IMG/VR virus record: IMGVR_UViG_2529293151_000012
Length of the DNA: 5,865 bases
Strand: one strand, 5' to 3'
Origin: a virus
Taxonomy: Duplodnaviria > Heunggongvirae > Uroviricota > Caudoviricetes
Both the position numbers and the translations under genes were made by a program. Every line of letters starts with the position of its first letter. Position 1 is the first letter of the stretch. The notes beneath the pieces were generated by a model. The model searched no databases. It was not told where the DNA came from and worked only from the letters and a program-made list of their open reading frames with translations. Positions 1-837 of the stretch are shown one piece after another.

Positions 1-837
1 AATGGTGTCACGCCGCCAGCGGTGCAGCACCTGACTGCCGAAGTCACCGCAGACAGCGGGGAGTATCAGGTACTGGCCCGCTGGGACACGCCGAAGGTGG
101 TGAAGGGCGTGAGCTTCCTGCTTCGCCTGACCGTGGCAGCGGATGACGGCAGTGAACTGCTGGTCAGCACGGCCCGGACGGCGGAAACCACATACTGCTT
201 CAGGCAACTGGCGCTGGGGAACTACAGGCTGACAGTCCGGGCGGTAAATGCGTGGGGACAGCAGGGCGATCCGGCATCGGTATCGTTCCGGATTGCCGCA
301 CCGGCAGCGCCGTCACAGATTGAGCTGACGCCGGGCTATTTTCAGATAACTGCCACGCCGCATCTTGCGGTTTATGATCCGACGGTACAGTTTGAGTTCT
401 GGTTCTCGGAAACGCGGATTACCGATATCAGGCAGGTTGAAACCACAGCCCGCTACCTTGGCACGGGGCTGTACTGGATAGCCGCCAGTATCAATATCAA
501 ACCGGGCCATGATTATTACTTTTATATCCGCAGTGTGAACACCGTTGGCAAATCGGCATTCGTGGAGGCCGTCGGTCGGGCGAGCGATGATGCGGAAGGT
601 TACCTGGATTTTTTCAAAGGCAAGATAACCGAATCCCATCTCGGTAAAGAGCTGCTGGAAAAAGTAGATCTGACGGAGGATAACGCCAGCAGACTGGATG
701 AGTTTTCGAAAGAGTGGAAGGATGCCAACGATAAATGGAATGCCATGTGGGCTGTCAAAATTGAGCAGACCAAAGACGGCAAACATTATTCGCGGGTATT
801 GGCCTCAGTATGGAGGACACGGAGGAAGGCAAACTGA
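1..837 (+). CDS. J: Tail tip host-specificity protein J (central tail fibre), 5'-partial; this frame ends prematurely after an apparent frameshift near nt 790 (J-like sequence ends about nt 789, the last 16 codons are out-of-frame read-through)
   Basis: Frame 1 is open from nt 1 (the track ORF at 22 is just the first GTG/ATG in an already open frame). The translation ([31 protein letters not shown] ... [31 protein letters not shown] ... [18 protein letters not shown]) matches, from memory, the distal third of lambda gpJ including fibronectin-III-like segments ([22 protein letters not shown]). After KHY the frame reads [15 protein letters not shown]-stop, which is not J-like. Confidence 0.88.

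Follow-up and report, generated by a model that had tools for sequence, protein, structure and literature searches.

Gene content of the window

The window (the whole stretch of DNA analysed, 5,865 nt) corresponds in full to contig AQBD01000115.1 in the draft assembly of E. coli P0304816.6 (GCA_000357845.2). Its gene order is J-lom-stf-tfa: the contig starts inside J, of which it holds the 3′ 1.55 kb of a lambda-type gene, and ends inside tfa (Table 1), its two ends probably corresponding to repeats common to other lambdoid prophages in the same genome. The exact whole window was absent from complete E. coli genomes, where the best whole-window match stood at ~96–97.5%, and no literature was found for the WGS accession AQBD00000000. 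The depositors had split J into two proteins, ENF54759.1 (‘fibronectin type III domain protein, partial’) and ENF54760.1 (‘fibronectin type III family protein’).

Table 1. Features of the 5,865-nt window, by nucleotide position.
Feature	Position	Strand	Evidence and remarks
J (tail-tip attachment / host-specificity protein), frame-1 part	1..789	+	Translation; corresponds to lambda J codons 614–876; two Ig/FNIII-like domains and alpha-helical shaft
Frames 1 and 3 both open, 73 nt; sole stretch where recoding could act	765..837	+	Frame scan
Deletion site	787..792	+	Alignments; TAT TCG here, TAT G TCG in lambda and strain 190
Out-of-frame J tail, 15 codons, then TGA 835–837	790..837	+	Frame-1 translation
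Remainder of J, in frame 3	792..1553	+	Corresponds to lambda J 878–1132; central straight fibre (most of Pfam Phage_Tail_Tip) and receptor-binding domain (Ig_GpJ_C); stop 1551–1553
First in-frame ATG of the downstream J piece	810..812	+	Depositor's start for the 247-aa ENF54760.1
Mosaic patch: final ~50 codons of the J receptor-binding domain, plus the beginning of the J-lom spacer	1399..1590	+	Alignment to AR436 and RM12581
lom (Ail/Lom outer-membrane beta-barrel), full length, 199 aa	1621..2220	+	Pfam Ail_Lom 1–199 of 199, E = 2.6e-120
stf (side tail fibre), uninterrupted 1132-codon ORF	2285..5683	+	Pfam phage_tail_N, Gp34_trimer, Collar
tfa (tail fibre assembly), first 61 codons, then contig end	5683..5865	+	Caudo_TAP_N in precomputed table

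A preliminary description of the window had called lom, stf and tfa intact. This holds for lom, which is full length, and for stf, which is uninterrupted, but not for tfa, only 61 codons of which precede the contig end. The tfa fragment gave no Pfam match at the default threshold, its Caudo_TAP_N assignment coming from the precomputed table only.

Two GC-rich hairpins followed by T-runs flank lom and set it apart as its own unit: one after J at 1571–1597 (GGGCGTCAGAAATGACGCC TTTTTT), spotted by eye, and one after lom at 2247–2274 (AGCCCGCCGGTTCAGGCGGGCT TTTTT), recovered by a scan. Within stf lies an antisense ORF of 249 aa (2782–3531, minus strand), called as a gene in a public collection and without a Pfam match. 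It resembles lambda orf206b, which lies within orf-401 on the opposite strand, and it probably arises as a side effect of stf codon composition.

A single G is missing from J

Across the site of interest the window reads GGC AAA CAT TAT TCG CGG GTA TTG GCC, with CAT TAT at nt 784–789. Translation in frame 1 follows the J sequence as far as ...EQTKDGKHY, continues for 15 further residues and then stops; the J sequence resumes in frame 3. The break was thus correctly placed, in both coordinates and frames, by the preliminary description, which had also supposed that one G was lacking relative to lambda. This proved right. Lambda (NC_001416, nt 18124 onward) reads AAACATTATGTCGCGGGTATTGGC, as does the closest intact prophage, that of E. 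coli strain 190, and alignment against both places exactly one missing G between nt 789 and 790 of the window: the intact site is CATTATGTCGCGGG in lambda and the near-identical prophage, compared with CATTAT-TCGCGGG in the window (deletion-allele string CATTATTCGCGGG). In lambda numbering of the 1132-residue J, the lost base opens the Val877 codon. It does not lie in a homopolymer (TAT[G]TCG), as had been noted from the window itself.

Putting the G back after nt 789, a check that had been proposed for this site, gave a single ORF of 517 codons, its only stop being the terminal one, that is collinear with lambda J 614–1131 at 78% identity and with strain 190 J at 94%. The lesion therefore has the form of a frameshift pseudogene: compared with an intact orthologue it is an indel of one base, repair of which recovers the full ORF; being a deterministic difference from that orthologue, it is not a matter for a chance test. 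What the window lacks, of the features of the J family, is one unbroken ORF of ~1132 codons linking hub and receptor-binding domain. Judged by homology, domain content and synteny, the gene is best regarded as J, but disrupted.

The deletion allele recurs in finished genomes

A 71-nt query centred on the deletion site, run against 5,426 complete E. coli genomes, matched at 100% in exactly six (6/5,426, or 6/2,223 of those in which the J segment is present). Among the matches listed, every next-best row (54/54) spans 72 bases, that is, the extra base is present. The six carriers came from different laboratories, hosts and countries: 3985 from human blood in Houston, USA; MB165 from poultry in Cuba; ET300 from a frog in China; W150 from a human in Kunming, China; and AR436 and AR_0374, for which the source is not recorded. 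A direct string check confirmed the allele in the loci of AR436, 3985, MB165, ET300 and W150, and in the annotations of these same five genomes J is marked as a ‘frameshifted’ pseudogene (5/5 read; that of AR_0374 was not among them). An exact-pattern scan recovered the allele from two independent metagenome contigs (SKEQ01001217.1 and SKDZ01001828.1), with no matches in GTDB species representatives or in IMG/VR viral contigs.

An intact sister of the allele also exists. Over the ~1.56 kb compared, the prophage of strain 190 differed from that of AR436 only in the G, with the same neighbouring protein accessions, and its J (WP_047661854.1) is an uninterrupted 1132 aa. In the search, E. coli GN4741 gave a match over the same 1424-base span as strain 190. 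We infer that the strain 190 state, with the G present, is ancestral and, because this sister allele is one base away from AR436, that the lesion is recent.

The window itself differed from AR436 by one substitution over nt 1–1398, being otherwise identical, and its lom was near-identical. Between these lies a patch of ~190 nt (1399–1590) with 77 differences from AR436 and only 0–4 per 100 nt from a prophage of O145:H28 RM12581; beyond it, near-identity to AR436 returns through lom, and divergence in stf grows from ~nt 3550. The patch could be a gene-conversion tract in the receptor-binding domain, or it could mark a switch of the short-read assembly path between co-resident prophages. Since the latter may have happened in a repeat-bounded contig of 5.9 kb, the window may not represent one true haplotype.

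The same considerations bear on whether the deletion itself is an error, the G being present in the P0304816.6 genome and lost from the draft assembly. The window is a whole draft contig bounded by prophage repeats, and the patch changes prophage type just as an assembly path switch would. Against this, an artefact of the usual kind is an indel in homopolymeric or low-complexity sequence confined to one assembly, whereas here the site is not a homopolymer and eight other independent sequences share the allele, six of them finished genomes from different laboratories that carry it within a near-identical 1.4 kb, and two of them metagenome contigs. Loss of the same base from nine sequences by independent error is not credible, and we consider this explanation very improbable. 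A sequencing slip, earlier rated less likely but not excluded, thus gives way to a real mutation: the same lesion recurs across independent assemblies and isolates, the base call in the window contig is indirectly backed by the identical allele elsewhere, and comparison of these sequences shows the deletion to be genuine, recent and vertically inherited.

Predicted product of the deletion allele

All four J domains were found in the repaired protein by Pfam (Ig_J 1–101, Ig_J_second 103–205, Phage_Tail_Tip 233–359 and Ig_GpJ_C 396–516), at 98–137 bits against gathering cut-offs of 22–29, and the repaired ORF aligned with residues 614–1131 of PDB 8iyk_J at E = 9e-266. Its membership of the J family is seen in this collinearity with lambda J, in the four domains above gathering score and in its position in the tail operon (...L-K-I-J-lom-stf-tfa): J-lom-stf-tfa in the window, with H-M-L-K-I upstream in near-identical prophages. 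The break falls at repaired residue 264 (J codon 877 of 1132), inside Phage_Tail_Tip and at no domain boundary. [quoted passage not shown]

The predicted product of the deletion allele is J 1–876 followed by 15 unrelated residues, 891 in all. Such a protein would keep the hub, both FNIII domains and the alpha-helical shaft, and would be missing the central straight fibre along with the receptor-binding domain. The C-terminus of J has an established role in receptor binding and in triggering of ejection. Because of this role the truncated J should be unable to support infection, and we infer that it is non-functional and that the prophage alone would make no infective particles, although a J without its C-terminal part might still suffice to nucleate tail assembly.

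The receptor-binding domain is encoded in the window downstream of the frameshift. Its last 163 residues (window 1062–1550) scored 274 bits against ‘A8 gpJ’ and 103–105 bits against lambda, and residues 1–112 of these 163 equal PDB 9WCA (‘A8 gpJ 713’) bar one residue. ‘A8’ is an OmpC-using gpJ variant for engineered lambda particles (Brodel et al. 2024; PMC11338833). From this similarity, the J of this prophage family probably targeted OmpC rather than LamB. For the window itself any receptor assignment would be of low confidence: up to the patch its receptor-binding region is near-identical to the ‘A8’ gpJ chimera (PDB 9WCA, 9WCB), but the last ~50 residues differ.

Recoding, restart and split-gene readings of the two frames

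The lambdoid tail operons use −1 frameshifting in G/G-T, and a −1 shift anywhere in the 73-nt overlap (nt 765–837) would restore the J frame, so that programmed recoding, whether by ribosomal frameshifting or by transcriptional slippage, might in principle yield full-length J from the deletion allele. However, a scan of the overlap for X XXY YYZ heptamers and for runs of at least four identical bases found neither a slippery heptamer in the zero frame nor a homopolymer of ≥4 bases. For a stimulatory RNA structure, the fold of nt 765–900 was like that of shuffled sequence (z = −0.73; 47/200 shuffles fold at least as well). Nor is the two-frame arrangement conserved, being present in 6/2,223 genomes with the segment while the other 54/54 among the matches listed are in frame, with 72 bases. 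Programmed frameshifting and slippage were rejected on these grounds, and the likelihood that recoding makes full-length J from this allele is, in our judgement, negligible; the preliminary description had likewise held that J is not known to use programmed frameshifting.

The downstream piece could also be thought of as a gene in its own right, a possibility that had been tied to an independent ribosome-binding site for the second ORF. Such a site was looked for. Frame 3 offers a single start codon before nt 900, ATG 810, and no Shine-Dalgarno motif stands in the 20 nt that precede it (TCGCGGGTATTGGCCTCAGT). With no ribosome-binding site before its sole start, and with the break inside one Pfam domain, the two ORFs are not separate genes, and an independent second gene was rejected. 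The frame-1 stop (TGA 835–837) sits 25 nt downstream of ATG 810, and weak re-initiation there is conceivable.

This last point permits a subtler possibility, in which the gene is split but functional, the 891-residue hub piece and the 247-residue piece from ATG 810 assembling non-covalently or, in a variant, tails without the central fibre working by way of Stf. This would be reminiscent of phages such as T5, in which the hub, the central fibre and the receptor-binding protein are distinct polypeptides. Both J pieces remain open reading frames, termination at TGA 835–837 could be coupled to re-initiation at the nearby ATG, the other lysis, head and tail genes are annotated as intact in 3985, MB165 and W150 (in the regions read), and the allele persists in a geographically dispersed lineage. 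Yet the break cuts into one Pfam domain, at the start of the beta-prism fibre rather than between domains, and ATG 810 lacks a Shine-Dalgarno motif; the allele is in only six of ~2,200 genomes with the J segment; it is one base from an intact copy, so that nothing suggests that it has adapted to being split; and further tail-gene lesions occur in 2/5 carriers read, as would be expected without selection on the tail module. A functional split J is therefore a most unlikely account of the two frames. With the identical deletion in six finished genomes and neither a recoding nor a restart signal, the preliminary reading of J as a pseudogene stands.

State of the rest of the prophage

In all five finished carriers read (5/5) the prophage adjoins ssrA. 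Whether the tail genes upstream of the window are intact had been raised as a question, and was answered in relatives: in the regions read of 3985, MB165 and W150, all lysis, head and tail genes are annotated as intact except J. Two other carriers have extra lesions. In AR436 there is an IS4-family (ISVsa5) insertion in gpT (29829–31496 of the locus read) together with a frameshifted hypothetical gene; in ET300 the tape-measure gene has an internal stop and a C40 peptidase gene at the position of lambda K is frameshifted (12715–17556 of the locus read), although both lesions could be assembly errors in that record. As the J deletion is common to the carriers while these other lesions are private, it is presumably the earliest, and the private lesions later. 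The latter fit with relaxed selection on the tail module after loss of J.

It had been proposed that the pattern is that of a decaying prophage which keeps genes of benefit to its host. The data do not bear this out. Other lysis, head and tail genes are also intact in 3985, MB165 and W150, and the lesion is recent; because nearly everything else is intact too, intact lom and stf say nothing of retention, and reflect the recency of the event, not selective retention.

Defective lambdoid prophages are described as exchanging segments, in either direction, with co-resident or infecting phages through recombination (PMC3945230), and the J lesion is therefore potentially repairable in polylysogens. 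E. coli genomes with any match have a median of two J-like loci, and the J-deleted prophage could be rescued by recombination with co-resident lambdoid prophages.

Origin and significance of the J lesion

The explanation that we favour, and hold to be very probably correct, is a recent spontaneous one-G deletion in the J of a lambda-like prophage, inherited vertically and leaving an ordinary pseudogene. The single G, first base of the Val877 codon of gpJ, would have been lost spontaneously and recently, and the deletion would then have been passed down vertically in an E. coli lineage that includes P0304816.6. Translation of J would stop at TGA 835–837, after the 15 out-of-frame codons, and the remaining 254 J codons would be an untranslated, or at best poorly translated, remnant.

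This is an ordinary prophage pseudogene involving no new mechanism, and RefSeq annotation has already flagged the same allele in related genomes. Its import beyond annotation is small: ENF54759.1 and ENF54760.1 should be merged as one J pseudogene. It does offer a clean, datable first step in the grounding of a prophage, in which a prophage that is otherwise mostly intact lost one base from its essential tail-tip gene, the intact sister allele still circulates and private lesions came later in some descendants. Moreover, the single-base marker could be used to trace this prophage lineage.

It is highly doubtful that the deletion allele is instead alive, with the truncated hub nucleating tails and the fibre and receptor piece either supplied by re-initiation at ATG 810 or made dispensable by adsorption through the intact Stf. 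Were it so, a tip protein split in nature would not disable a lambda-like phage, which would persist, active, in a globally dispersed E. coli lineage.

Comparison with known J genes

A two-frame tail gene is not in itself foreign to lambdoid phages: lambda G/G-T, like J of the window, has two overlapping frames within a tail gene. However, the window J has neither the slippery sequence, nor the conservation, nor the stimulatory structure of G/G-T, and is not a member of that class.

Other split J genes were also encountered. Phage PhiR29_2 (PV340557.1; host E. coli C), in which J is annotated as two CDS, was entertained as a viable phage with the same split and rejected, its 2-nt gap sitting elsewhere, at J nt ~1945. 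That gap (GGGCGTG to GG--GGG, at 3131–3153, relative to the sibling PhiR30_1) could be a sequencing error; otherwise it is a second natural split of J. In an unrelated lambdoid prophage of O145:H28 RM12581, gpJ is also annotated as ‘frameshifted’ (1661–5157 of the locus read), so that J pseudogenes are no rarity among E. coli prophages.

Lambda gpJ (1132 aa; PDB 8IYK, 8XCJ, 8XCK) shares with the window the Pfam order Ig_J, Ig_J_second, Phage_Tail_Tip, Ig_GpJ_C and the gene order J-lom-stf-tfa; in the window, unlike in lambda, the G at codon 877 is missing, the gene is split and the receptor-binding domain is not of the LamB-binding type. The J pseudogenes beside ssrA in AR436, AR_0374, 3985, MB165, ET300 and W150 have a deletion identical to that of the window, these prophages differing from it in the last ~50 J codons (1399–1553) and in the C-terminal part of stf from ~nt 3550. 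The J of strain 190 belongs to the same prophage and, unlike that of the window, still has its G.
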